A stretch of 59,487 bases of DNA, the filler included. It is 5 parts of 5 records of this genome, joined end to end, with 100 filler letters (N's around TTAATTAATTAA, not from the genome) between each part and the next. Parts side by side here need not be neighbours in the genome. Positions count along the whole stretch, not along the records: positions 36,833 to 59,487 come from DRR723986_9839; 4 more parts are not named here. The stretch is one strand, 5' to 3'. The notes beneath the pieces were generated by a model, which worked only from the letters and a program-made list of their open reading frames with translations, had not been told where the DNA came from and made no database searches. The position numbers and the translations under genes are program-made. Positions 38,205 to 57,151 of the stretch are shown here, piece by piece; position 1 is the first letter of the stretch; every line of letters begins with the position of its first letter.

Positions 38205-38801
38205 CTAATTCAAGCGCTCCACAAGAAACTCCCCTTCCGTGATTGTCACCATGTCCTTTTGGACTATATCATAAATTTTTCCCTCAAAAGTGCCCTTGGC
38301 ATATTCTTCAGTAAGCTCCACTATTTTGACAACAGGTGATTCCTTTTCGACATCAGAAACATAGTTTTTTTGATGTCCCTCTGTGTAATAACCTATTGTT
38401 GCACCCTTCAGTCCAAAACCCGTTTCTTCAAATGGTTCCAAAAAATCATATCGCTTGGTGGTTATTGGGTCTGAATCCTTAATAAAAATGGTGAATCCAC
38501 CTCTGCTCCCGTTTGCTACTTCATCCAGTTCACCGCCTACTATAGATACCTGATGAACGCCTGCCATGATTCTGACCATAGAAAATTGCAGCAAATCAGG
38601 ATCATTGAACTTTATTAGTTCCCCGTCCACTTTTGCCTGGATGTAATAAGGATAGTCTTCACTGGAATCAATTTCCTCGTCCAAGGCTTCTACTTCTTCC
38701 TGTTCAGATTCATGGTTTTCACTTTTTGTCAAGGGCGAGCAACTAAACATAGTTCCTACAAGGAACCCTAGTAGGATTCTAATGAATAGTGTCTTTTTCA
38801 T
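38205..38801 (-). CDS. Hypothetical lipoprotein
   Basis: Lipoprotein signal ..TMFSC, an acidic linker and a beta-rich domain ending GTFEG..ITEGEF. Confidence 0.8.
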   Translation of the reverse strand: MKKTLFIRILLGFLVGTMFSCSPLTKSENHESEQEEVEALDEEIDSSEDYPYYIQAKVDGELIKFNDPDLLQFSMVRIMAGVHQVSIVGGELDEVANGSRGGFTIFIKDSDPITTKRYDFLEPFEETGFGLKGATIGYYTEGHQKNYVSDVEKESPVVKIVELTEEYAKGTFEGKIYDIVQKDMVTITEGEFLVERLN

Positions 38802-38822
38802 TTGATTGTTTGATTTTAGGAC

Positions 38823-39530
38823 TTAGAAAAACTTACCGATCCAGCGAAACTGACTAGGATCCTCTAGGTTTCGGATCGTGATTTTAGAAGGAAAAGAGGC
38901 TCTGATTTTCGGATCAGTTTCGTAAACCTCCTCGATGTCGTATTGCACCCAATTGAATCCTGGCTCTAGATTCAACTTGAATTGATAGTGAACAGGGATC
39001 TCTTCGCCCTCATAGGGCATGGTTGTGGTCAACGGGAAATCCAAAGAAGCAGGCTCTTCCAGAAAAACAATGTTGAGGTAAGAACCCGGAACGGCATTAT
39101 TGTTCCCGGGGTCTTCCATCCAGTTTTTCAGCTCTTCGCTTGTCACAGGAAAAATCGTTCCTGCCCATCGGTTTCTACTTGCCATTAGGGCGATATAGGG
39201 ATTTTTAAGAGCCATGATATCAGCGACCAAACCAAAATCATCTCTGGAAAACGGCCCGTCAAAGGCCTGATTCAAATCCCCGAAAAAGACCGCCATGTCA
39301 TTAACATCCATCGCTTCGGGCAAATCAGTTTGGGCCAAGTCGATAGAAAACTCTCCTCCGGCAGATACGGTGCCAATTTCCATGGGGTAATCAGCCCCGA
39401 GTGTAAAAAGTGCCAACTTCATTTCAGGGAGTTGACCAAAGCCATCAATTGTACCAGTGACCACTTCTTCCTGACTGTGAAGCGTCATAGCCATTAATCC
39501 AATCGTTAAAATTCCAAAAAGCTTTTTCAT
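38823..39530 (-). CDS. Hypothetical secreted protein
   Basis: Sec signal MKKLFGILTIGLMAMTLHS-Q; operonic spacing. Confidence 0.8.
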   Translation of the reverse strand: MKKLFGILTIGLMAMTLHSQEEVVTGTIDGFGQLPEMKLALFTLGADYPMEIGTVSAGGEFSIDLAQTDLPEAMDVNDMAVFFGDLNQAFDGPFSRDDFGLVADIMALKNPYIALMASRNRWAGTIFPVTSEELKNWMEDPGNNNAVPGSYLNIVFLEEPASLDFPLTTTMPYEGEEIPVHYQFKLNLEPGFNWVQYDIEEVYETDPKIRASFPSKITIRNLEDPSQFRWIGKFF

Positions 39531-39553
39531 GATTTTTAGTTTTATGTTAGTGT

Positions 39554-42500
39554 TTATTTACAGGGAAATTCATCCGTGGTCTTGTCCATCAGTCGAATCA
39601 AAATCGCCAGGCCTCCCATGATTTTTTGCGGCCTACCGGAAAGCCCACTATGAATAAAATGAGCCGCCTCACAGGCATCCATCTGCAAAGCTTTAAGTAC
39701 ATCTTCCTCCAGATTACTCGTGTCCATCGTTTTGATAGCATGGGAAGCAATCGCATACAATCGCAAAAGCATCAGATGAAAACCTAGAAACCCTATACTC
39801 CGCCCGGGATTCTTATTGAGGGTCCGGGTATAATTCTGGATTACAGTGTTCAGGTCATCGTATCGGGTGTAGATTTTGCGCTTCCCGCCCCCAGTCAGAT
39901 CAGGTAAAATCCCCAAAAGCTCTCCTGACTGCCGATCAATTTGCCAATAGGCCATTGTATGGAGTTCCTCGCTGAAGAGTTTAAAAGAAGAATCTCCTCG
40001 AAACCAATTTTCTCTGATAAATGAAATATTCGGTCCATCCCGTAAATGATCGTCAAACCAGTTCCTTTCCTTAGCCAATTCTGTACTGATCAGCCCAGAA
40101 TCGGAAAGTAAACTATAGGTGCTTTCTTCGAAAAAAGCATCTTCAATCAAAGCCAAATGAGCTGTTTTTCTGAGGTTTATCTGAAAACTTTCTTTGACAT
40201 CAGCAGAAATGGTGACAAAATCTGCTGTGGGTAAAATATCCACCGAATCTTCAGAAAATTCCTGATTGATACCCACAGTCCGTTTTAGAAGAACCATTCG
40301 AATACCACTTGCAAAAGTCAAAGAACCAGTAGTCACCTGATCAGGAAGTGGACTAAGCAAATGAATCATCAATGGATCATATATCCAATTGGATTTCTCC
40401 ATTGCTTGCAGAGTTTCTTCCAGATTTTCATTTTTAAGTGCTTCAATTCTAGCCTGATGGCTCAATCTAAAATTCAACAGTTCGTTTAGTGCATTTGCAT
40501 ATGTTGGTCCTTGCCCCTCTACTCCAATTAGCAAAGATCCAAAGAGAAAATTCCGAACATCGTCTGAATGGTTTTTACCGATTGAATCTGCCTTGTCAGT
40601 TACCGGATCCCAACCGGCCAAGACTTTCTCTATGTTTTGATTTCCGATTTTGATCCGCAGGTAAACACCGATAATCTTCGGCCCGATAGCTTGGGTTTTG
40701 TCCCGGAACTTGAACTCATAGGTTTCTTCAGCAAAGATCCGCTCCTCATCAAGACTTACCCTTAGCTGGTTTTTTTCCTGCTGTAGCGATCCATAAAAAG
40801 TAAACACATAAGGAGGTAAATCCATCTGGCCCAACTGCCGGATAATCTCCTCCTGCGTGATTTTCTGGTCTCTGGCATCGATGATTTTACCATCACTTGA
40901 CAAAGAGAGATTAGCGAAAACCTCTTGATTCCTGCCACGGGTCGAATGAGTTACGTCCAGAACAATCACTGGAGGTCCAGCCTGAAAAGTATCCAGATCC
41001 CCTTCTTTTAATTCATCCTGGTTATCTCCATCCGTCGCAAATAAAATCAGATCAAAAGAGCTTAGACTAGCTTTTCTCATCCACTGATAAAGAGCCGAAT
41101 CAGTAGCCCAGCTACTTAATGAAGCCTTTGGGTAATTTTGTCGGATACCATTTTCTAAAGTATTCAAAAACTCATTCATACCTTCGTTCCTGTATTGGAG
41201 AGGCATGCTAAATGAGGTATCGTATAGAATCAGCACTTTAGGAGCAAATTCGTTGGACTCCATAAGTGGATTGATTCCCTTACCATTTTCTGAAAATGTA
41301 AAATCTGAGGCATTTAATCCCTCTACAGGTTTACCCTTTTCGTCCATAGGCCACAAAGAGACCTTGACAAGCGAAGGAAGTCCTGCGGAAACCTTTAGTT
41401 GAAGACTGGCAACTTCTTTCGCCACGCTAGAATCCTTTCCTCCTTCGATCTGAAAACCATTGATACGAAGGGACTTTTCTTTTTGATTGACTTCTATCCG
41501 GTCAGCTTCCAACGTCACCGTCTGACATACTTCTGCCTTCCGGCTTTGTTCTTGCTCATTCAGGTCGGGGCTTTGAATACTGATTGCTGGGGTAAAAACC
41601 CTGACTTGATTAAAAGAAGTACTTGCCTGCTCCAGAAGGTCTAATCCATGATAAAAACCTAAGTGAAGCTGTCTTCCGACCAATTCTTGGGCTTGATAGG
41701 TTTTGGACAAAAGGATCGTTTCTTTTTCAGGAGTGATATTATCCCTGTAACTAAGGCTAAACTCAATGGGCGCTAACACATATTCTGGTGGATCGGCAAG
41801 TTTGATGGTACTTGCCAGGTCAAAAGCATTTCCAAAGGTGACAGAAGAATCGAAGAGATGAGCGATTTGCTCCTGTCCATTCCACTGAAACCGGACAGCG
41901 GGACACCTGCTATTGTCCCACCTGAAATCAAACTTGTGATACCGGATTCGCTCTTTTTCAGGAAGAAGGTCCCACAATCTTTCAGCTAGCCTTCCAGCAT
42001 CCTTTTCTTCGGAGTTGATATAGGTGAGCGTAGGCAAATCAGATTCTGAAACCTTGAGCATTTTCATCCAGCGATCCAAAAGCGTATCGTCCAGATCGGC
42101 TAAAATTTTTTCCTCATATGCTCTAAAAAACAAGGTCTTTACTTTTTCCTCATCAAAATCGGTGCGCTCATACACCACCTCAGCTGAAATACCGGCTTCA
42201 GCTAAAAGTTGGACAAGGAGCTCTGCTTTTTCCCTTGGAGTAGCAAATCCATCCCTTAATACGCCACGGGTACCCTGTCGCAAGGCAGTTCCCATACCTC
42301 TTAGGGAAGAAGCATTTGCCGGAATCAAATAGATTGAATCCCGTACAAATTCCAGCATCTTTTTAGGATCACAGCTTTCTTTTACTCGAAGGTAAGATTC
42401 GGTAAGACAAGTCTGGCTGCTTTGGATCAACTGCTGCATTTCTTTCCAAACCTGAAATACCCCACCATCAGGCTCTTCGTCAAAGCGCGGGTCTTCATCG

Positions 42501-42589
42501 CAGGAGCTAAGCCAAGCACCAGAAGAAGATACCAGGCCAAAGAGTGCCAGCTTTTTGAAAAATTCTCTTCGATCAGGTGAAAAGGACAT
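39554..42589 (-). CDS. Large Tat-signal lipoprotein with transglutaminase-like and vWA-like domains
   Basis: DRREFFKK Tat motif and LSSC lipobox; FVRDSIYLIP..GVLRDGFATPREKAELL; vWA motifs LYDTSFSM and FATDG. ATG at 42589. Confidence 0.75.
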   Translation of the reverse strand: MSFSPDRREFFKKLALFGLVSSSGAWLSSCDEDPRFDEEPDGGVFQVWKEMQQLIQSSQTCLTESYLRVKESCDPKKMLEFVRDSIYLIPANASSLRGMGTALRQGTRGVLRDGFATPREKAELLVQLLAEAGISAEVVYERTDFDEEKVKTLFFRAYEEKILADLDDTLLDRWMKMLKVSESDLPTLTYINSEEKDAGRLAERLWDLLPEKERIRYHKFDFRWDNSRCPAVRFQWNGQEQIAHLFDSSVTFGNAFDLASTIKLADPPEYVLAPIEFSLSYRDNITPEKETILLSKTYQAQELVGRQLHLGFYHGLDLLEQASTSFNQVRVFTPAISIQSPDLNEQEQSRKAEVCQTVTLEADRIEVNQKEKSLRINGFQIEGGKDSSVAKEVASLQLKVSAGLPSLVKVSLWPMDEKGKPVEGLNASDFTFSENGKGINPLMESNEFAPKVLILYDTSFSMPLQYRNEGMNEFLNTLENGIRQNYPKASLSSWATDSALYQWMRKASLSSFDLILFATDGDNQDELKEGDLDTFQAGPPVIVLDVTHSTRGRNQEVFANLSLSSDGKIIDARDQKITQEEIIRQLGQMDLPPYVFTFYGSLQQEKNQLRVSLDEERIFAEETYEFKFRDKTQAIGPKIIGVYLRIKIGNQNIEKVLAGWDPVTDKADSIGKNHSDDVRNFLFGSLLIGVEGQGPTYANALNELLNFRLSHQARIEALKNENLEETLQAMEKSNWIYDPLMIHLLSPLPDQVTTGSLTFASGIRMVLLKRTVGINQEFSEDSVDILPTADFVTISADVKESFQINLRKTAHLALIEDAFFEESTYSLLSDSGLISTELAKERNWFDDHLRDGPNISFIRENWFRGDSSFKLFSEELHTMAYWQIDRQSGELLGILPDLTGGGKRKIYTRYDDLNTVIQNYTRTLNKNPGRSIGFLGFHLMLLRLYAIASHAIKTMDTSNLEEDVLKALQMDACEAAHFIHSGLSGRPQKIMGGLAILIRLMDKTTDEFPCK

Positions 42590-42591
42590 AA

Positions 42592-42942
42592 TTAAAAGTT
42601 TTTGAACCATTCTTCAAACTGTGTCCCAAGGAAGGGCACAGGCTCCATGCGACCATTGACCGCATGAATCAGACCCATTACCCACATATAAACCATCACA
42701 GCTAACCCAATTAGGTAAATGATCCAGCCTAGAATTGGTATCAAACTGATCAATACCAGACCCAAACCGACCATGACCAAGCCCAGCGATTGTTTGATGT
42801 GGTATTTGGCAAAAGGATAATTCTTCTCATTGTTTATGACAAAAGCGATAATCAAGCCGATCACGGTGAGATAGGCTATGACGGCTTCGGTTTTACCCTC
42901 GGGAGAAGTAGTCAAGCTTAAAGGTTCTTTACCGTTTTCCAT
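42592..42942 (-). CDS. Small membrane protein (DUF4870-like)
   Basis: Three transmembrane helices with AYLT..G, FAKYHIKQSLGL and PVPFLG. Confidence 0.8.
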   Translation of the reverse strand: MENGKEPLSLTTSPEGKTEAVIAYLTVIGLIIAFVINNEKNYPFAKYHIKQSLGLVMVGLGLVLISLIPILGWIIYLIGLAVMVYMWVMGLIHAVNGRMEPVPFLGTQFEEWFKNF

Positions 42943-42953
42943 TTTAAATAGAG

Positions 42954-43562
42954 TTAGTTCATAGATAATCCTTCATCGCGTGGACGAAGTTGAAAATTAA
43001 AACCTTGTACTGTTATTTGCCTTGACCCATTAAAATTGGCCAGAATAATCCCGTTAAGCTCTCCTTTGAGCAGTTCACCTTCTGTCCAGATCTTGACAAG
43101 TTTGCTGGTATTTTCGAAGCGATAGTAGGAGACATAATCGATTCCCTGATCAGCATTGTAATAGCTCACGATAATATGATCATCAAACTGCTGCAGCTGA
43201 TTGATATGCGGAGTCGGATATTCATTGTCCAATGTCCACGGTTTCAGCTGAGAAGCTTTTAGTGTTATGCTGAAAACATCCCCTGCCCTCGGATCATCAT
43301 CTGGTGGATAAAAATTGAGGGTCATGGTCCGGTCAAATTCTGTAGCAGTGACCATCAAGTAGGTGTCAAAATCATCCAAAAGCGGCCCACTAGTACCCAA
43401 AGCGACGTATTTGCTTTCATCATAGACAATGGTACCAGAGACATCACCGCTCACTTCCAGTGAAAAATATTCACTATCCACCAGTTTGATGTCATCTTCT
43501 TTGCCGCATGCCAGGCAGAAAATCAAGATTGCTGATAAGGAAGTGCTTAAATACTTTTTCAT
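42954..43562 (-). CDS. Hypothetical lipoprotein
   Basis: Signal ending CLAC followed by a charged GKEDD segment. Confidence 0.8.
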   Translation of the reverse strand: MKKYLSTSLSAILIFCLACGKEDDIKLVDSEYFSLEVSGDVSGTIVYDESKYVALGTSGPLLDDFDTYLMVTATEFDRTMTLNFYPPDDDPRAGDVFSITLKASQLKPWTLDNEYPTPHINQLQQFDDHIIVSYYNADQGIDYVSYYRFENTSKLVKIWTEGELLKGELNGIILANFNGSRQITVQGFNFQLRPRDEGLSMN

Positions 43563-43564
43563 TT

Positions 43565-44374
43565 TTATCGGTTTGATTGGGTTAGCTCATAGGGTTCAAA
43601 AGCCACACATACCATCGTCGCACTTCCGTTCTTTTTGCCGGTGTTTTCTTTATCTTCCATTTCCATATACATCATCAAACTGTTTGGAAATTCCTCAGTA
43701 AAGCGCTTTAGCTCATCCGGCATATTGTTTTGTGTATTTTTAAATACATTATCAAAATTGGCCGGCATGTCAGTGGCAAAATAGACGATGAATTTCATCT
43801 CGTCATTTTCCATCTGCCTACCTATACAGTCATAGCCTAGAAATTCCCGATTGGGCAGTTCAGTCAGTGTGAAGGATTCATAATCCACCGCATAATCTTC
43901 CTCCATCAGTTCCTCTTCCCCGAGAATATTCATGGAAGTGGCAATCGGCCTACCCTCAATGTAATTGACCATAATCTGTCGCTCCTCGTCAATGACCGAG
44001 AAGAAATTCATGCCCATATCCATTTGGTAGCCGATGTAGGATTCGTTGGGATTTAGAAAATAATCCAGCTGCATTTCTCCGGCTGAGGTGCTCATTTTCA
44101 TAGCATAGCGGTATTGAAAAGAGTAGGCATCTGGTAGATCCGATACATCCACGGGTTTGCCTTTGGCTCCGCCACCGAACATTCCCTCAAAGTTGGGATT
44201 GAGGATTTTGTTTAAGGCATTTTCGGTCATCTGCCCGGCTTTATCCGCAGTTTTGTATTCGACCACTTCTTTGGCTCGTTCCTCTACTCTTTTTTTGAGG
44301 TCTTTCAGGAATTGTCCTTGGGACAACTGCGTGCATAAAATGTATAGGCAAAGCGATAAAATAGATTTTTTCAT
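43565..44374 (-). CDS. Secreted DUF4412-like protein
   Basis: Signal peptide, N-terminal helix QFLKDLKKRVEE and the REFLGYDC motif. ATG at 44374. Confidence 0.75.
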   Translation of the reverse strand: MKKSILSLCLYILCTQLSQGQFLKDLKKRVEERAKEVVEYKTADKAGQMTENALNKILNPNFEGMFGGGAKGKPVDVSDLPDAYSFQYRYAMKMSTSAGEMQLDYFLNPNESYIGYQMDMGMNFFSVIDEERQIMVNYIEGRPIATSMNILGEEELMEEDYAVDYESFTLTELPNREFLGYDCIGRQMENDEMKFIVYFATDMPANFDNVFKNTQNNMPDELKRFTEEFPNSLMMYMEMEDKENTGKKNGSATMVCVAFEPYELTQSNR

Positions 44375-44397
44375 TACAATCGTTGTTTTGAATGGGA

Positions 44398-44463
44398 TAA
44401 AGTTCAAAAGAGAAGTATCAAAGGCATATCACAGAAGTAACAAGTGATAACAACTTTGTAACA
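44398..44463 (-). promoter_or_regulatory. Regulated promoter: -7 box plus TGTTAC-N15-TGTTAC direct repeat
   Basis: Minus-strand GAACTTTA at 44398-44405 (Bacteroidota consensus TAnnTTTG); plus-strand GTAACA at 44437 and 44458. Confidence 0.6.
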
Positions 44464-44507
44464 GGAGCTAAAAAATACCCTTGCTCACTCTCAAGAATGG
44501 TTTATTA

Positions 44508-46448
44508 TCAATCCACTAGTTCGAATCTCACCCAAACGGCAGCCTTTTCTCCTGCCTTTCCTGCCTTGATCGGACCTTCCAGAATATACCTTCCACCCGT
44601 AGAAGAAGCCTCAGTTAACATCAGGGTTCTTGGGCCAAAATCATGAAACTGCATGCCTCCCTGTGCGATCTGTCCGTCCGGATAAGTTTTCGTTGCTTCA
44701 AGGGGCTTGTTTCCTGCCAGTATGTCCAGTAATTCCTGAAGTGGAACCAAAATATCATCATCATGGATCACCCGGTCATTTGAACTGGTGTATTCTTTGA
44801 GCCAGGTATAAATCCGCAGTTCGTTTTTGGGATCCTTGTAGTCCTCCCAGGAAAGATTAAACGTCATGGAATTGACGATTTGATTTAGATCGCGGGCGAC
44901 TCGGTTTTCCCGAACATGTATTTGAGTATTCATCCCTCCTCCTATCCAACAGGCATAGGGGCCCGAGATGTTTTTTCTCCCCGGAGAAGTGAAGCCACAG
45001 GGAGCACCAGAGAACTTATTAAACTGGGATTCACTTGGCAGCAGGGCTTTGTTTCTAGCCTTTAGCACCACACCCATTTGGAGACCATAATCATCAGGAT
45101 CATCTCCACCTCCATCCCGGCCGTCCACATTCTGAATGTCTGTCAGGGTCATTTTGAGACGGTAATTTCGTTTTTCAACACAGGTTTCTATATCCTGCCG
45201 GATGGAGTTGGTCATACCAATCTGCTGATTTTGCAGATTCTTGATTTCAAAGCCTATTGGAAGAGCCAGTTTGTGATTTGCTGGCTGACTTGTGATCCAT
45301 CTTCCGATTTCAGGCCGACCATTTTCCAGTGTATTGACTATTGACTCGGCTGCGGCCTGGCTGGATCCTCCATACATATAGGCATGTATCTCCACCTCGT
45401 TGTTACTTTTGGCCTGTTGATAGAACGAACTCAGTTGCGCCTGTGAAATCGCCGAAAAGCCTGTACTGATGTTCAGTTTAGCCATCAGGCTTTGCAGAGA
45501 GCTTTTGGACTTAAATAAGATTCCACCTCGCCTGCCATAATTTACCTTGGAGATGTAGATATAGTCCTCAGTGGAAACTGGCTGGGAAGTTTGAAAAACG
45601 GTAGTTTCATCCAGTCCATCTACGTCCAAGGAAAACATAAACTGGGTGAATTCGACTAGGTAATAGTGGTAACTTTTTTGATTCCCGGCCTCTACTCCTA
45701 TAGAGCTCGAAAAAGAGCCCAAACCACCCGAATACCGTCCATTCAGCTTAAAACTCAGATCTTCCTGACTTTTGATTTCGGTAAACTTAAGTGTCATATT
45801 GGCTGAAAGCGGATCTGCATTTTGTGAAATGAGCTGATTCTCGGCTGTAGCAATGTTTGATTTGTTTTTGGGATTAGTGACGGTAATAGCGGAATTAATG
45901 GCTCCACGCAAATCAGAGGTAGAAATGGTAATGGGAGAACGCTCATAGCGTTGCTCAATCTCATATGTCCCATTTAGGAAACTCCGGACATTCAGGACTA
46001 TGCCCGGCTTGAGCCAATCAGGTCTAGCGCCCAGAGGCATTTCTTCAAATTGCCTAATCTTGGATTCCAAATTAAGACGCTCCCGCTTGCAGAAAAGTGT
46101 AGCTGTATTTTTGTCACTCAGGGGCTGGGACTGAGTAACTTTGGAGTCATTCAGTGCATCTGATACGACCAGTAATTCCCTTCGACCACCCAGTTCGGTA
46201 GGACTACCTGAGATCAGATATTCAAAAGGTTCTATCTGAGCAAAATAATTGACCACTCCTACCAGTTGAGGAACTTCTTGCGTCGAGGTTTTTTCAAGGT
46301 CTGTTTTTGTCTGAGTGGGTTTAGTGGTAGTGGTTTTCCTTGTGATGACTTGGGCCTCAGCCCAAGAGACAGTCATGAAAGCACAAAACCCCAAGGTAAG
46401 CCAGGTAGAGCTTTTTAGAAAGCTGGATTTTTTTGAAAAAAGTAGCAT
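44508..46448 (-). CDS. Thiol-activated cytolysin family / CDC-like (CDCL) pore-forming protein
   Basis: Ordered CDC core motifs LKPGIVL, RSPITIS, VTNPKNKSN, FTQFMFSLDVD, YISKVNYGR, YGGSS and LPIGF. It has a Sec signal, and the C-terminal domain lacks the ECTGLAWEWWR undecapeptide. Confidence 0.85.
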   Translation of the reverse strand: MLLFSKKSSFLKSSTWLTLGFCAFMTVSWAEAQVITRKTTTTKPTQTKTDLEKTSTQEVPQLVGVVNYFAQIEPFEYLISGSPTELGGRRELLVVSDALNDSKVTQSQPLSDKNTATLFCKRERLNLESKIRQFEEMPLGARPDWLKPGIVLNVRSFLNGTYEIEQRYERSPITISTSDLRGAINSAITVTNPKNKSNIATAENQLISQNADPLSANMTLKFTEIKSQEDLSFKLNGRYSGGLGSFSSSIGVEAGNQKSYHYYLVEFTQFMFSLDVDGLDETTVFQTSQPVSTEDYIYISKVNYGRRGGILFKSKSSLQSLMAKLNISTGFSAISQAQLSSFYQQAKSNNEVEIHAYMYGGSSQAAAESIVNTLENGRPEIGRWITSQPANHKLALPIGFEIKNLQNQQIGMTNSIRQDIETCVEKRNYRLKMTLTDIQNVDGRDGGGDDPDDYGLQMGVVLKARNKALLPSESQFNKFSGAPCGFTSPGRKNISGPYACWIGGGMNTQIHVRENRVARDLNQIVNSMTFNLSWEDYKDPKNELRIYTWLKEYTSSNDRVIHDDDILVPLQELLDILAGNKPLEATKTYPDGQIAQGGMQFHDFGPRTLMLTEASSTGGRYILEGPIKAGKAGEKAAVWVRFELVD

Positions 46449-46471
46449 GTCTTATGTCGTTTTATGATGCT

Positions 46472-48461: not shown

Positions 48462-48473
48462 GAGAGGCTTTGT

Positions 48474-49079
48474 TTAGCTGGGGAAAGGTTGAGATTGAAG
48501 TTCTTCGAAAGCACCGTAGATTTGGTCGAGACCGACCTGATTACCGATAATCCCTAAGTGATAGCGTTGATTTTGAAGGTATTCGAGCTGATGGTTTTGC
48601 TGTCCGTTTTTGGTTTTGCTCACTACCAAAACCCGATCTCCTTTATGATCTTTGACTTCTGATTTAAAGTCATCTCCTGATTCATTTCGCTTTTTTTCCA
48701 AGAGTTTGTACACCGCATTGGCATGCTGAAAGTGCGGGTTGCCGGCTCCATCGATCACTTCAAGCCGGATACCGGGCTGATCGCTACCGTCTTTGGCAGC
48801 ATAGAATGCCATAAAGCCATTTAAGCTGGGATGAGGCTCTTTAGATAGCAGCGGAAATCCCTGAAGTTGATCCGGTGGTAATGCCAGATAGGCAGCTTCT
48901 GATAACGGACCTTTGTCCATTAGAGCCATCAGCCAAGAGCCGGTAGAGGATTCGGGTGTTTTTTCCAGACTAGAGACTCCAGCTACAGTCTCGGACTGTT
49001 CGGAAGGAGCCGAAGTGCAGGCAATTAAACTACAAGCAGATAGCCCAATGAATAAATACTTAAAATGAGAAATTATCAT
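48474..49079 (-). CDS. Hypothetical lipoprotein, paralog 1 of a tandem family
   Basis: Lipobox LIAC; LEVIDGAG..QRYHL. Confidence 0.8.
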   Translation of the reverse strand: MIISHFKYLFIGLSACSLIACTSAPSEQSETVAGVSSLEKTPESSTGSWLMALMDKGPLSEAAYLALPPDQLQGFPLLSKEPHPSLNGFMAFYAAKDGSDQPGIRLEVIDGAGNPHFQHANAVYKLLEKKRNESGDDFKSEVKDHKGDRVLVVSKTKNGQQNHQLEYLQNQRYHLGIIGNQVGLDQIYGAFEELQSQPFPS

Positions 49080-49106
49080 GGCAGGATTCGAATTTGAATA
49101 CTGCTT

Positions 49107-49172
49107 GAAAGGTAATCTGGACCAAAAAATTCAGATATAAAAACTGTAACAAATTATCTTAAAATGGTAACA
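49107..49172 (-). promoter_or_regulatory. Regulated promoter: -7 box plus TGTTAC-N15-TGTTAC direct repeat
   Basis: Minus-strand TACCTTTC at 49107-49114; plus-strand GTAACA at 49146 and 49167. Confidence 0.6.
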
Positions 49173-49223
49173 GGGCAATATTATGAGGAAGTAATGAACC
49201 TTCTGCTTTCCCGGTCAAGGCCT

Positions 49224-50750: not shown

Positions 50751-50762
50751 CCATTCCCCGAT

Positions 50763-52259
50763 TTACAGCCAAAATACGATTTCTGTGCCTTCTTCGCCTG
50801 CTTGGATATGATCCACAATCTCAAAATGGTAATTGACAGACTCGGATTGGTTGAACAACTGCAGCCTGTCCTTAGACAAACTCATCCCGATTGACTCCTT
50901 TTTTAGGGTTCTATTAGCATTGATTTCTTGGGATTTTTTCCGGCCAATTCCATTATCACGGATTGACATTTTTAAGCCTGCTTCTACCTTTTCTATGTTG
51001 ACTTTTATCCATTTTTCACCGCCTTTATTCATCAGTCCATGCCAGATGGCATTTTCAAAAAACGGCTGCAGGAGGAGCGGAGGAAAATAGATATCACTCA
51101 ACCTGACCTCCTCGCAAACATCCAGTTGGAAATCAATTCCATCCTCGAAACGGATCGACTCCAGAGTCAAGTAAAGTTTGGCGATTTCCAATTCTTCGCC
51201 CAGTGAAATCCTCGTTTTGCGCGAGCTCTCCAGCACCATGCGGATTAATTTGGAAAACCGATTCAGGTACAAAATAGCCCGATCCTTATCCTTATCTATC
51301 AAAAAGACTTTGATGGAATTCAGGGCATTGAAGATGAAATGGGGATTCATCTGACTTCTTAACGAGTGGAGATGAAGACGGGTAATCTCTCGTTCAAAAT
51401 CCGCTTTTACCCGCTCCATTCGCTCATCTTCTGCATCAGCAGCCAGAGAGAGCAATTGCTCCTCTTTGAGATTCAACTCACTCTGAAGGCTTTGATTGAG
51501 CTGCTCACGTAGTTCTTCATTTTCTTTGAGTTTTGCCAGGAGCTCCTCCTGGACTTCAATCTTTTCTTCGAAAATATCCCGCTGCTTGACTGCCAGTGCA
51601 AAAGTAAAAAGCAGGTTTTCTAGCAGGACACCAATGTAATACACATAATAATTTTGATCGATGACCTCCACTGGCTGGCCTATTGTCAGAATCGCTACCA
51701 GAAAGGCACTTATCCCCAAAAACAAAGATCCTATCAGGATGTAATACCTGATAGGATCTTTGGTCTTTGTCACCAAATAGCTGCCATAGATCATCACAAA
51801 AAAATAGATCGGAAGAAATACATAGTAAAAAAACTCCTGCATCGCGCTAAAGGAAGGAAACAACCATTCAAGCACAGCTAAAATCACATACAAGATCGTT
51901 CCGGAAAGTGTGAAATAATTAAAAAACCGGACAAACTTCGGCAATTGGACTTTCAAGTGAACCACCTCTATCACGAAGTAAGAAAAGAGGATGTAGCTAG
52001 CGAATTTCAGAGGGGAATCCAGTTGGATGAAAAAATCAGGAAAGGCCCGAAAGATGTCCTGAAAAAAAACATTGTAGGGTACAGGGATCAGGATCAGGAC
52101 ATTTGTAAATGCATAGGTGCTGTAGAAAAGATAGAATTTCTCCCGGGTCTTTAAAAACAGGACAAAGTGATAAACAAACAGGTAAAACAGGATGGAGATA
52201 ATACTGAAGCCCAGCCCATTGTAATTACTATCATATAAAAAATCCAAAAACCAATCCAT
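50763..52259 (-). CDS. LytS/YehU-type sensor histidine kinase with 7TM-DISM-like membrane domain (paralog)
   Basis: About 7 transmembrane helices, SQMNPHFIFN, QPFFENAIWHG and DNGIG. Confidence 0.9.
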   Translation of the reverse strand: MDWFLDFLYDSNYNGLGFSIISILFYLFVYHFVLFLKTREKFYLFYSTYAFTNVLILIPVPYNVFFQDIFRAFPDFFIQLDSPLKFASYILFSYFVIEVVHLKVQLPKFVRFFNYFTLSGTILYVILAVLEWLFPSFSAMQEFFYYVFLPIYFFVMIYGSYLVTKTKDPIRYYILIGSLFLGISAFLVAILTIGQPVEVIDQNYYVYYIGVLLENLLFTFALAVKQRDIFEEKIEVQEELLAKLKENEELREQLNQSLQSELNLKEEQLLSLAADAEDERMERVKADFEREITRLHLHSLRSQMNPHFIFNALNSIKVFLIDKDKDRAILYLNRFSKLIRMVLESSRKTRISLGEELEIAKLYLTLESIRFEDGIDFQLDVCEEVRLSDIYFPPLLLQPFFENAIWHGLMNKGGEKWIKVNIEKVEAGLKMSIRDNGIGRKKSQEINANRTLKKESIGMSLSKDRLQLFNQSESVNYHFEIVDHIQAGEEGTEIVFWL

Positions 52260-52263
52260 ATTT

Positions 52264-52974
52264 TTAAGATTTAAGTTGATTTTTGAGTACTTCCAGAAAC
52301 TCCTTTTTTCTCAAGCGGGAAAGCGGAAGGCCCTCACCGGATTTCATCAGCACCTGCGACTGGCTTTTATCCAAAAGCTCAAAATGTTCCATATTAATCA
52401 GGTAACTATGATGAATTCTGAAAAAAGGAAATTGCTGTAACTGTGACTGTAAGTGTTTGAGGTTCTTGGAAACCATTAGTTTAGATCCACAAATGAGGTG
52501 AACACAGGTATAGCTGCCCTCGCTTTCGCAGTAGGTAATTTCCTTGGTTCGGATCATCCGCAATTCCTGGTCGGTATTCAAAAGAATCTTTTCGTGAGGT
52601 GTCGTCTGAGTCTGCGTTTTTTTATCCTCCAATTTGGTCAATACACGATCCAAATCCTCTCCGTCCACCGGCTTGAGTAAGTAATCAAACGCATGCTCTC
52701 GTATCGCCTGAATAGCATACTCGGAATAAGCCGTGACAAACACCACCTCGAAATTTCTGGGATTGATTTTTTCCAAAAACCGAAAACCATCCATCTGCGG
52801 CATCTCAATATCTAAAAATAAACAGTCAATAGACATCTGATTTAAGCCGGAAAGTGCATCAGCAACTGTTGAAAATGTATTGATGATTTCTATCCGATTT
52901 TCAAAAAGTGACAACTCATACTCCAATGAGAGGATTGACTTGGGTTCATCATCCAAAATAGCTACTCTTATCAT
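52264..52974 (-). CDS. LytTR-family response regulator
   Basis: Receiver motifs LDDE, FLDIEMP, FVTAY and LLKP; LytTR motif FFRIHHSYLIN. Confidence 0.95.
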   Translation of the reverse strand: MIRVAILDDEPKSILSLEYELSLFENRIEIINTFSTVADALSGLNQMSIDCLFLDIEMPQMDGFRFLEKINPRNFEVVFVTAYSEYAIQAIREHAFDYLLKPVDGEDLDRVLTKLEDKKTQTQTTPHEKILLNTDQELRMIRTKEITYCESEGSYTCVHLICGSKLMVSKNLKHLQSQLQQFPFFRIHHSYLINMEHFELLDKSQSQVLMKSGEGLPLSRLRKKEFLEVLKNQLKS

Positions 52975-53179
52975 GGCAGGTTACATTAGTTGGGATCAAA
53001 AAACTAGTGGCATCACACGCTCCTATCCAAGTTTTCAGCGATTCTATTAATTCTATGCCAGTTTAAGTTCCAACTTATCACTTTTTTAATGATTATGATT
53101 TCCTTTTACAAAAAATCCAATACATAGTCCAGATGAGGCTTTCAAAAAAAATAGCTTTAAGCATAATTCCTTAGGAGAT

Positions 53180-56100
53180 ATGAGATTGCGATTTTTTAAA
53201 ATACTTGTCCTTGGTTTAATAGAGTTGTTGAGTGCGCCTGCTTTTGGTCAAGAATCCATTCGTTTCCAGCAAGTCACTCAGGTAGCTGACTTGGTCAATG
53301 ATCAGGTAATCTCCGTGCGACAAGATCAGGAGGGTTTCCTATGGATACTTTCAAAGAGGGCACTAAAGCGATATGACGGCTACGAAGTCAGATCTTATCC
53401 TTCTAATTTTGACCTGGTGCTAGACGAGGGTTTGCTACTCAAAAGTGAGCTTTATTTTGATTCCAACGAACGTGTCTGGGTAATCAGCGGATCCCTTCAA
53501 CCCAAATACTTAGATCAGGTTACGGGAAAATTTCAGGAAATCCCTGATCTCAATTCTGTGACCACCATGTTGGAGCTTCAGCAGGGTGTTTTTTTGTTTG
53601 GCACGCTGAGTGGCCAACTTTTTCAATGGGATGAAGCTAAAAAGAGCAAAGAACTCGTCCTGGTCAAATCCAATCAAGAAATCGTCAAACTTTTGCGAGA
53701 TCCGGATAAGGAAGATCAGATCCTAATTCTTTTCAAGGATGAAATTGGAAGAATGAATACCAAGACTCAAGCTTACAGCATGGTGCATTCAATCCCAATT
53801 TCTAGTCCTGAAAAATTCACCACCGCCTATTTCGATAAAACCGGCAAGCTTTGGCTGGGGACTTTTCGTCATGGTTTGTATGCTATGACTGACTACAATT
53901 CCAGTCCAGCATCAATGGTTCATACATTTGTATCCACCGAGATTCATTCGCCTATTTTAGATATAATTGAAGATAAAGAAGCTAGAATTTGGGTCTCTAC
54001 TTTTGATGAGGGAATCTACGTTTGGGATACCAAATCGAATGAATGGGATCATTTCCGCTATCAAAAAAACAGCTCCCATACGCTGGCACACAATTTTGTC
54101 CCCACCTTACTGGAAGATGACTCAGGCACCATTTGGATTGGCACTTTCGGAGCCGGATTGAGCTTTTACGATTCCTATTTAAATCAATATCATTCGCTCA
54201 AAAATCAGAATACACCCAAAGATATAAACCTTGAAAATATCAAAACCATCTATACAGACTCCTCAGAGGTGATTTGGATCGGTACAGGAGGCAAAGGGCT
54301 GATATCCTATGATATGAAAAGTCAAAACTGGACCTCCTACCGCCCTTCTATTCCTAATGGCACATTTCTGAAAAGTGATCAGATACAACACCTCTCAGGG
54401 ATAGGGGAAAATCTATGGATCAGCTATACCCAGGGGGGCCTGAGCAAGTGGAACCCACAAACTGGTAAAAACACCTATTTTGATGAGAAAACAAGTCCTT
54501 CGATTCCAGAAGGACAGATCCTGAAGGTCTTTCCTGCCAGTGCCGATCACGTATGGCTATGTACCAAAGAGGAAGGTCTATTATTGTTTCACCCCCAAAA
54601 TGGGATCATCGGTCACTTTGATTTCAAACCAGATTCCATCAACTCATTCCCGGATAATCATATTACCGAACTACTTCATCCAGAAAAAGAGGTAGTCTGG
54701 GTAGGAACCGGCTCGCAGGGTCTGATTAAGCTTCATGCTGAGTCGGGGCATTTTCAGCAGTTTATGCCTAAACTGGAAGATAGCGACTCCCAACTCCCCT
54801 GGTCCATAACCAGTTTGACACAAGGCATTGACCACCAAATCTGGGTAGGAACCGCATCGCATGGCCTTTGGCTATTTGATTCAAAAACAGAAGAGTGGAA
54901 GTACCCTTCCGCATTGGTTCTGTTAAAAAACTCGCCCATCTATGGACTTTCGACAGATCAATTAGGGCAGGTATGGATAAGCACAGCACAAGGCGTGTCA
55001 TCCCTAGACTCGGGACCGGATGGGGAATTTAGGCTACATCATTTAGGAAGCAACGTCGAAGAAACTTTTTCCTTTGGCCAAGGAGTGTTTTTTCAAAATC
55101 CAGATCTGGGGATTTTCATAGGGGGGTTTGATCAAATCCTGTTTTTCAAAGGAAAAGAAATCCGTCAAAATTCCCTTCGTCCAAAAGTCACATTGATTAA
55201 GCTTACGCAAGGAAAAGAAGAAATCCCGATTGAGGATGGATTACGTCTAAGCCCCAGTCAAAATGACCTCACTTTCTATTTTTCTACCTTGAGCTTTTCT
55301 GCACCGGACCAAAGTATTTTTCAATACCGTCTATTGGGGACTGAGGACGAGTGGAGAATACAGCAAGGTATCAACCAAGTAAGCTATACTAATCTGAATC
55401 CGGGGGAGTATCAGTTTGAGATAAGAGGAAGTAACTATAATGGAGTCTGGAATGGAGAACCACTTGTTTTTAAGTTCCGAATCAAAACCCATTGGTATCA
55501 AACACTTTTCATAAAGCTGATACTAGCCATTAGCCTTGCTGTCCTGCTTTTTTTAATCTACCAATACCTGAAGTTTCGATGGTCAATGAAAGTAAAACTC
55601 GCGCTAAAGGATCAGGAAATGGAAAGGATGCTAGAGCTGGACCAGTTGAAATCAGCATTTTTCGGGAATATCTCCCATGAATTCCGAACCCCTTTGGCAC
55701 TAATCATGGGGCCGGCAGAGCGACTCTGGCAAAGCAGTGGAGATCTGGTAGTCAAATCTAAACTGAAACTGATCCTGGAAAATGCCAAAAAACTCATGGT
55801 TTTGACAGATAAGATTCTCACTATTAAAAAATTGTCTTCAGAGAAGTCTGCACTCCAGATCAAACTTGGCAATCTGAGCTTACTAATTCAATCTGTATTA
55901 GTAAATTTTTCATACCTGAGTGTTCAAAAAGAAATAGTCATCAGGTCACATATTCCATTGATCACGGAGGTCTGGTTTGATTCTGACAAAATGGAGGTCT
56001 TACTGGAGAATACAATCTACTTTGCTATAGAAGCAGCCCAAGCCAAATCAGCTATTAATGTAGAAGCCACTTTAGAAAACCAAAACCTGAGAATAACTGT

Positions 56101-57151
56101 AAGGTTTGAAGTTGATCCACAGCATCGACATGCCCTAAATAAAAACAAACAGTCTCCCAACTCTTACTCTGAACCAGCAGAACTTTTGATGAAGAAAAAA
56201 TTGATAGAAAAGTTGGTTCATGCTCACGAAGGCACATTTGACAGCCGCGTGGACAATGAATGGAAGGCAGTATTCCGAATGGAATTTTCAGTGGACAAAT
56301 ACAGCTATCATCCATCTTTTGTTCAAGAGGAGGAGGATATGGATACTGAGCTAATAGATCGCTTAGTACCAACCACCATCCATCTGGATACTGCCGCCTC
56401 CAAAATACTAGTGGTAGAGGATAATAAGAATTTAAGAGAATTCCTGTGCGAGGAGCTCGGAAAATCTTATGAGGTCCTAGAAGCAGAGAATGGAAAAACT
56501 GGGCTCTATGAAGCTTTGAAATCCAATCCAGATCTAATTTTATCTGATGTAATGATGCCAGAGATGGATGGCTTTGAATTTTGTGATAAAATCAAAACCA
56601 ACGAATTGACCTCACACATCCCTTTTATCCTTCTGACGGCCAAAACGGAAGAAGAATCTCAACTACTCGCACTCCGCCTAGGAGTTGATGATTATATCCA
56701 GAAGCCATTTTCTTTTCAAAAACTTGCCTTGAGAATTGAGAAATTAATTGAATTGAGAAATAAGTTGAGGGTTCGGTATGCAAGCTCAGTCCGGATAGCC
56801 CCTTCGGAGATCGCTTCATCTTCATTGGATGAAAAATTCCTTCAAAAAGTTCAAGAACTGGTCGATGATAAAATGATGGAGTCGGACTTTAGTATTGAGC
56901 AGTTTTGCCAGCATCTGGGTATGAGTAGAATGCAGCTGCACCGCAAGCTCACAGCGCTAACAGGCCTATCCACTTCCGCATTCATCAGGGATCAGCGGCT
57001 CCGGCTGGCGGTGCAAAAACTGGAAAAAACAGATGAAACCATTGCGGAGATCGCCTATTCGGTGGGTTTTAGCTCTCCCTCCTATTTTATCAAATGCTTC
57101 AAGGAATCCTACCAAATGACTCCAATGGAGTACCAAAAAGCGGCTTGCTAG
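53180..57151 (+). CDS. Hybrid two-component system protein (beta-propeller sensor, Y_Y_Y, TM, HisKA, degenerate HATPase, receiver, AraC HTH)
   Basis: Repeated D..G.(I/L)W.GT propeller blades, YTNLNPGEY, NISHEFRTPL, LSDVMMP and IAYSVGFSSPSYF. Confidence 0.93.
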   Translation: MRLRFFKILVLGLIELLSAPAFGQESIRFQQVTQVADLVNDQVISVRQDQEGFLWILSKRALKRYDGYEVRSYPSNFDLVLDEGLLLKSELYFDSNERVWVISGSLQPKYLDQVTGKFQEIPDLNSVTTMLELQQGVFLFGTLSGQLFQWDEAKKSKELVLVKSNQEIVKLLRDPDKEDQILILFKDEIGRMNTKTQAYSMVHSIPISSPEKFTTAYFDKTGKLWLGTFRHGLYAMTDYNSSPASMVHTFVSTEIHSPILDIIEDKEARIWVSTFDEGIYVWDTKSNEWDHFRYQKNSSHTLAHNFVPTLLEDDSGTIWIGTFGAGLSFYDSYLNQYHSLKNQNTPKDINLENIKTIYTDSSEVIWIGTGGKGLISYDMKSQNWTSYRPSIPNGTFLKSDQIQHLSGIGENLWISYTQGGLSKWNPQTGKNTYFDEKTSPSIPEGQILKVFPASADHVWLCTKEEGLLLFHPQNGIIGHFDFKPDSINSFPDNHITELLHPEKEVVWVGTGSQGLIKLHAESGHFQQFMPKLEDSDSQLPWSITSLTQGIDHQIWVGTASHGLWLFDSKTEEWKYPSALVLLKNSPIYGLSTDQLGQVWISTAQGVSSLDSGPDGEFRLHHLGSNVEETFSFGQGVFFQNPDLGIFIGGFDQILFFKGKEIRQNSLRPKVTLIKLTQGKEEIPIEDGLRLSPSQNDLTFYFSTLSFSAPDQSIFQYRLLGTEDEWRIQQGINQVSYTNLNPGEYQFEIRGSNYNGVWNGEPLVFKFRIKTHWYQTLFIKLILAISLAVLLFLIYQYLKFRWSMKVKLALKDQEMERMLELDQLKSAFFGNISHEFRTPLALIMGPAERLWQSSGDLVVKSKLKLILENAKKLMVLTDKILTIKKLSSEKSALQIKLGNLSLLIQSVLVNFSYLSVQKEIVIRSHIPLITEVWFDSDKMEVLLENTIYFAIEAAQAKSAINVEATLENQNLRITVRFEVDPQHRHALNKNKQSPNSYSEPAELLMKKKLIEKLVHAHEGTFDSRVDNEWKAVFRMEFSVDKYSYHPSFVQEEEDMDTELIDRLVPTTIHLDTAASKILVVEDNKNLREFLCEELGKSYEVLEAENGKTGLYEALKSNPDLILSDVMMPEMDGFEFCDKIKTNELTSHIPFILLTAKTEEESQLLALRLGVDDYIQKPFSFQKLALRIEKLIELRNKLRVRYASSVRIAPSEIASSSLDEKFLQKVQELVDDKMMESDFSIEQFCQHLGMSRMQLHRKLTALTGLSTSAFIRDQRLRLAVQKLEKTDETIAEIAYSVGFSSPSYFIKCFKESYQMTPMEYQKAAC

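Follow-up and report, generated by a model that had tools for sequence, protein, structure and literature searches.

Results

Gene content of the block

The window analysed here is a stretch of 59,487 nucleotides, and at positions 38205-57151 it carries a block of 15 genes (g1-g15) that includes the gene for a CDC-like (CDCL) pore former. Our analysis shows the block to be a conserved module of exported proteins that is sensor-controlled and patchily distributed; its operator is specific to the cluster, and its CDCL cassette is optional. Eleven co-oriented open reading frames (ORFs), g1-g11, occupy the minus strand at 38205-49079. Beyond g11 lie two genes for LytS-type kinases and a gene for a LytTR regulator (49224-52974, minus strand), and then the divergent gene of a hybrid AraC regulator (53180-57151, plus strand). 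The genes and control elements are as follows.

38205-38801, minus strand: g1, 198-aa lipoprotein of the lp1 family (lipobox MFSC; no Pfam match; orthologues in 6 loci)
38823-39530, minus strand: g2, 235-aa secreted protein of the s235 family (signal-like N-terminus; family in 12 loci besides the window)
39554-42589, minus strand: g3, 1011-aa lipoprotein with a twin-arginine (Tat) signal and a central VWA/MIDAS domain at about residues 447-592 (RREFF and LSSC)
42592-42942, minus strand: g4, 116-aa membrane protein with weak likeness to DUF4870 (E 9.6e-4, below the Pfam cut-off; 3 transmembrane-like segments)
42954-43562, minus strand: g5, 202-aa probable lipoprotein (lp5), Algoriphagus only (sequence and locus comparison)
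43565-44377, minus strand: g6, 270-aa secreted DUF4412-family protein (s280), first gene of unit 3 (family match)
44422-44463, minus strand: operator of unit 3, two tandem 21-bp units, TGTTAC...TGTTAC (exact match; conserved in 7 orthologous promoters, including CDCL-less ones)
44508-46448, minus strand: g7, 646-aa single-component CDCL (sequence, motif and fold model)
46496-46537, minus strand: degenerate operator of the CDCL unit, GGTTAC-N15-TGGTAG or, in another reading, TGaTAC-N15-TGGTAG (copy at 46537-46511), and then TTTTATCC (conserved in six aligned CDCL upstream regions)
46690-46714, minus strand: terminator-like hairpin and T-run (46714-46690) after g8, closing unit 1
46736-47236, minus strand: g8, 166-aa secreted protein of the s166 family (signal-like N-terminus; family comparison)
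47248-49079, minus strand: g9, g10 and g11, three tandem, diverged lipoprotein paralogues of about 200 aa, lpF family (17-19% identical to each other)
49131-49172, minus strand: operator of unit 1, two tandem 21-bp units (exact match; conserved in 7 orthologous promoters)
49224-52259, minus strand: g12 and g13, two paralogous LytS-type histidine kinases (7TMR-DISM_7TM, His_kinase and HATPase_c)
52264-52974, minus strand: g14, response regulator with a LytTR DNA-binding domain (Response_reg 5.9e-20, LytTR 1.6e-18)
53180-57151, plus strand: g15, hybrid two-component regulator (HTCS) with a Reg_prop/Y_Y_Y sensor, HisKA, REC and an AraC-type helix-turn-helix (HTH) (Pfam matches)

An initial annotation, made from the letters alone, had described the eleven genes as almost all secreted proteins or lipoproteins, and this holds: ten of them encode a signal-like hydrophobic segment at the N-terminus, and the product of the remaining gene, g4, is a small membrane protein. 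Export signals were assigned by inspection and with a crude script rather than with a signal-peptide predictor. A canonical lipobox is present in g1, g3 and g11, accompanied in g3 by RREFF, and in g5, g9 and g10 a Cys that is invariant in 29 of 29 family rows (alignment A4) stands straight after the h-region. The N-termini of g2, g6, g7 and g8 look like those of the signal peptidase I (SPI) type. The proposed division into three transcription units also fits the data, namely the separating gaps of 144, 287 and 100 nt and the terminator-like hairpin after g8. Unit 1 is led by g11 and extends to the g8 terminator, the CDCL gene is a unit of its own, and unit 3 is led by g6.

The lpF proteins form one blastp family, with 36 members in 12 loci and the window, and g4 is 54-92% identical across 11 loci. 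In the s280 family 10 of 13 members match PF14371 (DUF4412, best E 4.6e-7), and g6 of the window itself has no match. Profile searches of lpF and s280 against PDB sequences returned only signal-peptide-level or insignificant matches, and hhalign among the ten accessory families gave nothing above 62% probability. Genes for SusC/D, glycoside hydrolases or transporters are absent from the cluster.

The CDC-like pore former

That the 646-aa product of g7 is CDC-like is confirmed by a sequence match to CDCL structures, by the YY...YGR motif and by a CDC fold in the model, in agreement with the initial annotation. In a phmmer search of the PDB, g7 matches the CDCL-long structure 8g33_A at E 5.3e-9, and the Elizabethkingia CDCL structures 8g33 and 6xd4 lie at 5-6e-9. 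CDCLs are defined by an F/Y-F/Y-Xn-YGR motif in domain 3, as set out in PMC7527733. In g7, Y262 and Y304-G305-R306 are invariant and Y263 is at least 90% conserved (23 sequences). A match to PF01289 is the criterion for CDCLs used in PMC11169675; g7 has no Pfam match at E<=0.01, and a precomputed PF01289 (Thiol_cytolysin) hit is present in 28 of 42 g7 homologues. The AlphaFold (AF2) model of g7 (pLDDT 74) consists of a low-confidence stretch at residues 28-75, a CDC D1-D3 core and a C-terminal beta-sandwich at residues 427-646. With this model Foldseek found intermedilysin (E 2.1e-19), pneumolysin (4.2e-19) and the CDCL 8g33 (9e-12), and VIA gave Z 20.7 to pneumolysin 5aoe (398 residues aligned, root-mean-square deviation (rmsd) 5.8), 17.8 to CDCL-long 8g33 and 16.4 to CDCL-short. 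Residues 28-75 could be a propeptide, judging from the model. Residues 427-646 show a C2-like likeness at Z 6-7.4, below the caution line of the method. The C-terminal part of the CDCL profile, about 230 residues (~407-637), also matches other proteins on its own (G776:C28:23444-24160 and G859:C4:68805-69410), which suggests that this region may be a separable, reusable module.

The CDCLs characterised so far come in two-component form. PMC11169675 describes how such CDCLs of Bacteroides kill related bacteria and how the pore is blocked by a surface lipoprotein. The same paper notes 821 genomes with a single CDCL gene, by its count the commoner case; it did not study these single-gene forms, which are uncharacterised. 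Each of the loci L001-L015 and L019 has a single CDCL-family ORF, and the whole closest genome, Algoriphagus oliviformis (G001), has one match. The signal of g7 is of the SPI type by inspection and a crude regular expression, with no Cys after the h-region and an N-terminus that ends in ...SWAEAQ. Therefore g7 has neither the adjacent pair or triplet of CDCL genes nor the signal peptidase II (SpII) signal of the two-component systems. With EaCDCL and with BfCDCL and its immunity protein BcdI, as described in PMC11169675, PMC11952106 and PMC7527733, g7 has in common the superfamily, the motif and the CDC D1-D3 fold, and it matches the PDB entries 8g33, 6xd4 and 8g32 by sequence and fold. Bacteroidota origin, lipoprotein genes alongside and a patchy, mobile-looking distribution are further common features. 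Unlike them, g7 is a lone gene without a short partner in the cluster or in the closest genome, carries an SPI rather than an SpII signal, is 646 aa long and has a different C-terminal region. It also lies within a ten-gene module with dedicated sensors and an operator, unlike the two-component CDCLs as those papers present them. A complex prediction of CDCL residues 76-646 with s166 (g8), run without controls, scored 0.00 and is evidence neither way.

The VWA/MIDAS lipoprotein g3

The N-terminus of g3 reads SPDRREFFKK...LSSC, in line with a family consensus of DRREFxKK...SC, so that both a Tat motif and a lipobox are present. In the AF2 model of g3 (pLDDT 79.5, pTM 0.79), residues 447-592 match VWA domains in VIA at Z 13.8-10.3, with about 50 VWA entries at Z>=10.3; the best is 7p2d (Z 13.8, 140 aligned, rmsd 2.7). 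The matches include integrin I-domains and the pilus-tip adhesins Mfa5 and PilB. The MIDAS residues DxSxS of g3 (D457, S459 and S461) are invariant in 22 sequences. The protein has no Pfam match and no PDB sequence match, and its remaining ~850 residues match nothing. For the N-terminal part there is a transglutaminase-like lead (Transglut_core, score 0.80), below the meaningful level of the method, and Foldseek of the whole model returned only weak VWA or flavodoxin-like matches. The family comprises 426 representative clusters at E<=1e-30, mostly of ~1000 aa, and the members named in the sources are all 'hypothetical'. Like the VWA/MIDAS surface proteins (integrin I-domains, the Mfa5 pilus tip and BatB), g3 has the VWA fold and an invariant DxSxS. 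Unlike them, it combines a Tat signal with a lipobox, has ~850 unmatched residues and lacks a Pfam model.

Recurrence of the module and loss of the CDCL gene

A gene-neighbourhood search found the genes together in other genomes, so the reading of the block as one system does not fail for lack of co-occurrence. All 15 genes are syntenic in L001, L002, L003, L011, L040 and L041, apart from the CDCL gene in the last two, and in L004 synteny extends up to the contig end, giving seven Algoriphagus loci. The LytS/LytTR genes adjoin the cluster in all six Algoriphagus loci whose sequence reaches that side. A CDCL-centred scan with one genome per species yielded 24 loci. Five of them, from Algoriphagus, are fully syntenic with the window, and 11 further loci carry core families in shuffled order in Flavobacteriaceae, Roseivirgaceae, Prolixibacteraceae, Rikenellaceae, Sphingobacteriales and others. 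The CDCLs of the other eight loci are more distant, and these loci have either none of these families or the LytS/LytTR genes alone. The families common to distant loci are g3, s280, s235, s166, the small membrane protein and the lpF lipoproteins.

A g3-centred search was used to remove the bias of the CDCL-centred view, and the core families recur in g3-centred Flavobacteriaceae loci as well. Of 401 genomes drawn from the whole phylum only one, the centre genome, has g3; the gene was found in 7 of 123 Algoriphagus genomes and in 16 of 401 Flavobacteriaceae genomes. Full-length CDCLs of the g7 subfamily are present in 5 of the 123 Algoriphagus genomes, in all five at 1.3-1.9 kb from g3, and in 4 of the 401 Flavobacteriaceae genomes, in three of them at 1.5-2.9 kb from g3, the fourth genome having no g3. 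The association of the module with this CDCL subfamily is of long standing, and it is specific. g3 is the constant core protein of the module, together with the DUF4412 protein, the small membrane protein and the paralogous lipoproteins.

The claim that the block is centred on the CDCL does not stand. Two of the seven Algoriphagus clusters (L040 and L041, in genomes G419 and G430) carry all the other genes, including the three sensors, and lack the CDCL gene; there the g8 terminator is followed directly by the g6 promoter. Likewise, 13 of the 16 g3-bearing Flavobacteriaceae genomes have no full-length CDCL of the subfamily among the three candidates scored per genome. A quick g3 tree places a CDCL-less cluster as sister to a CDCL-bearing one at least four times, with SH-aLRT support of 88-100 (L040/L004, 88; L044/L005, 100; L046/L008, 100; L057/L050, 99). 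The CDCL gene is thus an optional, dispensable one-gene cassette with its own promoter, which lies downstream of the unit 1 terminator and upstream of the unit 3 promoter.

Other lineages pair the module with different regulators, either a sigma-factor trio (several Flavobacteriaceae and Prolixibacteraceae) or LytS/LytTR. A dedicated sensor is constant in the module and the type of sensor is variable. In L007, L008, L009, L015, L046, L047, L052 and L054, the divergent trio replaces the HTCS or LytTR genes beside the module; its products are a sigma factor of the ECF type (~181-186 aa), a protein with TPR (~242-244 aa) and one that combines a CHAT domain with TPR and reaches ~950 aa where its ORF is complete.

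Contigs from seawater RNA libraries, from two runs of one study, are 90-99% alike to the window and cover g1-g11, including the CDCL gene, and hardly the regulator genes; stretches without such cover prove nothing alone. In both runs an RNA contig ends at 46721, at the g8 terminator, which is a weak sign. These contigs hint weakly at transcription of the structural genes by relatives in the sea. A 19.7-kb metagenome DNA contig from another study spans the whole block.

A shared operator before the three units

The initial annotation had proposed one promoter architecture for the three units, and a single conserved operator indeed precedes g11 and g6 (exact) and the CDCL gene (degenerate). The operator unit is 21 bp long and bipartite, TGTTACA-N4-T-N2-TAT, with a conserved T12 and TAT15-17, and its tandem repeat gives a 42-bp operator. 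The consensus is drawn from 28 sites (56 units), among which the row of the window CDCL site is out of register. The distance from the end of the second A-box to the ATG is 67 nt for g11, 63 nt for the CDCL gene and 60 nt for g6. Within the window, TGTTAC-N15-TGTTAC occurs exactly only at 49172-49146 and 44463-44437. At up to 2 mismatches there are 4 occurrences, which is not above shuffled sequences; the case for the operator therefore rests on exactness, position and conservation. Exact sites number 15 in 795,270 bases of loci, the duplicate locus L045 being excluded. With a stricter pattern, the whole A. oliviformis genome (G001) has 2 sites, both in the cluster, and the reversed control gave 0. 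The whole genome of Paucihalobacter sp. G878 has 5 operator sites, 3 of them in the cluster.

Elsewhere in G878 (L059, G878:C8:2000-12000; L060, G878:C23:1-8000), the exact operator also precedes a very long surface-protein gene and a gene for a 607-aa protein without assignment, followed by genes for proteins with a Peptidase_S74 domain and type IX secretion system (T9SS) tails. The regulon is larger there. Upstream of the CDCL operator in the window, ~140 bp at 46540-46679 have no counterpart in A. oliviformis and are replaced or skipped in two metagenome contigs (joint from 46487 to 46680, with 85 other letters). The stretch is a variable spacer that separates the g8 terminator from the CDCL promoter. 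The divergent intergenic region between g14 and g15 (52975-53179) and its orthologous regions share a conserved block (CTATGTATTGGATTTTTTGTAAAAGGA in the window; consensus TATGTATCAGATTTTTTGTAATTGGA). By its sequence, the block resembles operator half-sites in opposite orientation and could be an autoregulatory site.

Candidate regulators of the operator

The domains of g12-g15 confirm that a LytTR-LytS-LytS group and a divergent hybrid AraC regulator stand directly beside the block. g15 matches Reg_prop (3.1e-24), Y_Y_Y (2e-12), HisKA (1.7e-9), Response_reg (1.7e-23) and HTH_18 (1.5e-21), and this order of sensor, HisKA, REC and HTH_AraC is that of the HTCS of Bacteroidota. Unlike HTCS generally, g15 does not control a polysaccharide utilisation locus, its ATP-binding boxes are degenerate in Algoriphagus, and two LytS genes and a LytTR gene lie alongside. 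g12 and g13 match His_kinase (PF06580; 3.7e-22 and 1.3e-21), 7TMR-DISM_7TM (2.3e-13 and 2.6e-15) and, below the gathering score, HATPase_c (8.2e-5 and 3.7e-4). They are 68-69% identical to each other at the DNA level and have a seven-transmembrane (7TM) sensing part only, with no extracytoplasmic domain. The best NCBIfam model for g14 is BtsR-like (9.1e-41, below the cut-off). With LytSR and BtsSR-type systems these genes share 7TM, His_kinase and HATPase_c in the kinases and REC plus LytTR in the regulator. In contrast to LytSR and BtsSR, their scores fall below the equivalog cut-offs, there are two tandem kinases per regulator and no LytTR-type target site was identified.

LytTR sites consist of 9-bp repeats with a 12-bp spacer, that is, a 21-bp period (PMC6193735). 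Dimeric AraC/XylS sites consist of tandem bipartite units, also with a 21-bp period, for example TGCA-N6-GGNTA-N6-TGCA-N6-GGNTA for XylS (PMC4514859). Like the XylS, MekR and AraC sites given in PMC4514859, the module operator repeats a bipartite unit in tandem at 21 bp, close upstream of the promoter. Its form, as predicted from sequence, is that of an AraC/XylS-type dimer operator, with two tandem bipartite half-sites and a period of ~21 bp. A bipartite unit is expected of a protein with two HTH motifs, and this favours an AraC-type regulator. The HTCS is favoured further because the operator box co-occurs with it where no LytTR gene is nearby. Exact boxes with an HTCS gene and no LytTR gene within 10 kb are found in L005 (Paucihalobacter; 3 boxes), L010 (1) and L044 (2); in L010 and L044 they sit between the HTCS gene and s280, the first module gene, and in L005 they precede three units. 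None of the 8 loci with LytS/LytTR and no HTCS has an exact box. In the promoters of the LytTR-only and sigma-factor loci, no 6-mer repeated at 20-22 bp was found in at least two promoters, and no LytTR target site was identified.

Several observations weigh against the HTCS as the binding protein. The 21-bp period fits LytTR sites too. The HTCS-adjacent cluster L049 has no box at up to 1 mismatch. L051, L053 and L057 have an exact box, and the 20 kb fetched contain no HTCS or other regulator gene. A match with 1 mismatch is present in three LytTR-only loci, and in L050 it lies between the CDCL gene and g3. From the sequence comparisons as a whole, the HTCS (g15) is probably the protein that binds the operator. 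Binding by the LytTR regulator is a less favoured possibility, and binding by both or by another protein appears improbable.

A degenerate ATPase domain in g15

The phospho-acceptor His box, the receiver and the HTH of the Algoriphagus g15 are intact, whereas its ATPase region is not. Three Algoriphagus HTCS copies cover the HATPase_c region, and none has a HATPase_c match (window, residues 810-1075, and L040 at E<=1; L002 at E<=0.1). The domain is intact in L005, L044, L049 and the L004 paralogue (E 8e-16 to 1.4e-19). Relative to L005 and L049, the Algoriphagus g15 has Phe in place of the N-box Asn, a deleted F-box and no G2 glycines (window 55850-56400, residues ~890-1075). The Flavobacteriaceae orthologues of the HTCS keep HATPase_c and have no LytS genes beside them. 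Since intact kinases adjoin the apparent pseudokinase, and the intact Flavobacteriaceae HTCS stand without LytS, the LytS-type kinases may supply phosphoryl input to g15. The response of g15 probably also receives input from, or is gated by, the two LytS-type kinases and the LytTR regulator, a wiring that is speculative.

The contig and its flanks

The window consists of five contigs joined by four identical artificial linkers, N44-TTAATTAATTAA-N44. The features outside the block are the following.

13761-13860, 20619-20718, 30883-30982 and 36733-36832, no strand: artificial linkers, N44-TTAATTAATTAA-N44, read directly
36833-38204, no strand: contig start, non-coding DNA with degenerate insertion sequence (IS) fragments (92% nucleotide identity to A. 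oliviformis H41 from 36833)
37159-37484, no strand: IS3-like fragment (by eye only)
37714-38073, no strand: IstB/IS21 fragment (IstB_IS21 E 4.5e-12)
58009-59421, minus strand: ISL3-family element with its transposase in three frames (DDE_Tnp_ISL3 1.3e-35)

Contigs 1-4 have a GC content of ~60% (58-61%) and proteobacterial-type housekeeping genes. Near 36.8 kb the GC content drops from 58-61% to about 42%, a difference of ~18 points between the window halves. The fifth piece (36833-59487, 42% GC) is Algoriphagus-like and contains the entire block; its DNA is 92-96% identical to a contig of A. oliviformis H41 over 36833-56555, and the alignment reaches 58136. The linkers and the two compositions show that the record mixes at least two organisms. 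Chimeric assembly and horizontal transfer into a high-GC host had been considered as causes of the GC jump and were rejected once the linkers were recognised. Genes to the left of 36733 are on separate contigs and therefore are not neighbours of the block. On the last high-GC contig, lgt (prolipoprotein diacylglyceryl transferase, 36241-36732) is truncated by the linker, and its apparent 179-aa ORF is a contig-end artefact.

The description of IS debris on both sides of the block stands in part. The IstB (IS21) fragment and the ISL3 element are confirmed, IS3 is recognised by inspection only, and IS66 is not confirmed, no transposase match being found for the ORFs at 57296-57657. The left flank is merely the contig start, because the contig of the block begins at 36833. 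The ISL3 element is multi-copy in the A. oliviformis genome (G001), with copies 78-79% identical, and the A. oliviformis contig ends at the element. The last 30 bases of the window, 59458-59487, lie past the ISL3 element and match the start of the same A. oliviformis contig (G001:C23:283-312, 97%). With the other end of that contig terminating at the IS, the match may reflect a rearrangement, or a circular or repeated arrangement around the element.

Discussion

The best explanation overall, to which we would give an even chance, combines the module, its control by the HTCS and a programme of antagonism or defence. The AraC-type output domain of g15 would bind the operator as a dimer and switch on all three units together, and the two intact LytS-type kinases with the LytTR regulator would, speculatively, feed or gate the same response. 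The genes switched on would form an inducible cell-envelope programme for antagonism or defence, in which the CDCL would be an optional effector by analogy with the antibacterial Bacteroides CDCLs. The surface and periplasmic proteins that are always retained would handle or neutralise pore formers. This guess at function might account for the repeated loss of the toxin gene while the rest is kept. The roles of an immunity lipoprotein and of antagonism are inferences, drawn by analogy.

A number of points weigh against this explanation. None of the accessory families resembles a known immunity protein, none has a known fold other than the VWA domain, and none of the module proteins has a demonstrated relationship to the immunity protein BcdI or BcdI-like binding. 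In Pfam, PDB profile and hhalign searches, the accessory families other than g6 (DUF4412) have no detectable relatives. The window CDCL has an SPI-type signal, and domain searches found on it no T9SS C-terminal domain that would account for its exit from the periplasm. Three genomes (G521, G522 and G523) carry the CDCL subfamily with s235, s166 or s280 and have no g3 anywhere, so g3 is not needed by the CDCL. The absence of the CDCL in Flavobacteriaceae was scored on 3 first-look candidates per genome and on 20-kb stretches. The RNA evidence comes from the contigs of one study, that is, from relatives 90-99% alike.

A more specific form of the same explanation is rather unlikely in our estimation. 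Here, in an envelope system scattered widely over Bacteroidota, the VWA/MIDAS Tat lipoprotein and its small partners would be the platform from which a single-component, complement-like pore former is deployed and by which the producer is protected, and repeated loss of the toxin would leave protection-only islands. All of this would be under one AraC-type operator, and the Algoriphagus HTCS would be a pseudokinase that depends on two recruited LytS-type kinases in a cross-family phosphorelay.

Three other explanations, to each of which we give a low probability, have to be weighed against the sensor-controlled module with its antagonism or defence programme. One is a regulon centred on the toxin, with the CDCL as its core, accessory or immunity proteins as neighbours, and LytS-LytS-LytTR as the main switch that binds the shared direct repeats. 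LytTR regulators bind paired direct repeats with 12-bp spacers and the same 21-bp period (PMC6193735), and LytS/LytTR genes adjoin all 6 reachable Algoriphagus clusters as well as CDCL or g3 clusters in L012, L017-L020, L022, L048 and L050. However, exact boxes are present in the LytTR-less loci L005, L010 and L044 and in 0 of 8 LytTR-only loci, and the unit is bipartite (T12, TAT15-17) as in AraC/XylS sites. Such a regulon is improbable also because the CDCL is lacking in 2 of the 7 Algoriphagus clusters and, with three candidates scored per genome, in 13 of the 16 g3-bearing Flavobacteriaceae genomes.

The block might instead be a defence or immunity island against the pore formers of competitors, in which the LytS-type sensors would detect membrane damage and induce a protective layer, and the CDCL would be a passenger in producers. 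Repeated loss of the toxin gene with retention of the remainder, the three diverged tandem lipoprotein paralogues and the LytS kinases with a 7TM sensing part only are consistent with an island of this kind, and the published CDCL immunity factor is a surface lipoprotein (PMC11169675). We nevertheless consider it improbable, as no likeness to known immunity proteins is shown and a ten-gene apparatus with a 1011-aa VWA protein far exceeds known immunity loci in size. In addition, the operator in G878 also precedes the genes of a giant surface protein and of T9SS cargo, which suggests a surface programme of wider scope.

Glycans are the usual signals of HTCS sensors with Reg_prop/Y_Y_Y domains. 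This is in keeping with a programme of surface adhesion or nutrient acquisition directed at algae, protists or particles, switched on by a periplasmic glycan-type signal to the HTCS, with the CDCL, where present, permeabilising the membranes of eukaryotic prey or hosts. VWA/MIDAS domains are adhesion modules, and the fold matches of g3 include integrin I-domains, Mfa5 and PilB. The weak C2-like likeness of the CDCL C-terminal region (Z 6-7.4) and the G878 operator before a giant surface-protein gene might also be read in this way. Near-identical DNA occurs in metagenomes from seawater, estuary, sediment and rhizosphere (shares <=0.29; only X1, X2, X10 and X16 were aligned, and other habitats were not used as evidence). 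Against this, genes for SusC/D, glycoside hydrolases and transporters are missing from the cluster, the C2-like likeness scores below the meaningful level of the method, and the characterised Bacteroidota CDCLs are antibacterial and not anti-eukaryotic as PMC11169675 reports them. We thus give little credit to this explanation too. A chance grouping of genes or an assembly artefact, which the concatenated contigs and the ~18 GC points between the halves might suggest, is already refuted and extremely improbable, because one contig holds the block in full, an isolate genome (92-96% identity) and a 19.7-kb metagenome contig are collinear with it, and its gene set recurs across families.

The initial annotation knew of no description of this arrangement, and our searches of the CDCL-related literature found none, supplementary lists of single-gene CDCLs lying outside them. 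CDCLs have recently been shown to be complement-like antibacterial weapons and have been studied only in their two-component gut forms. The present locus gives a single-component CDCL a defined setting, with a recurrent partner module, a mutable 42-bp operator, three candidate sensors and natural toxin-minus variants. The partner module is built round a family of ~1000-aa proteins without a Pfam model. The inducer of the CDCL, the survival of the producer and the role of the VWA lipoprotein family are open to direct testing in non-pathogenic marine bacteria, and the apparent pseudokinase HTCS beside two LytS kinases provides a tractable case of rewired two-component signalling.

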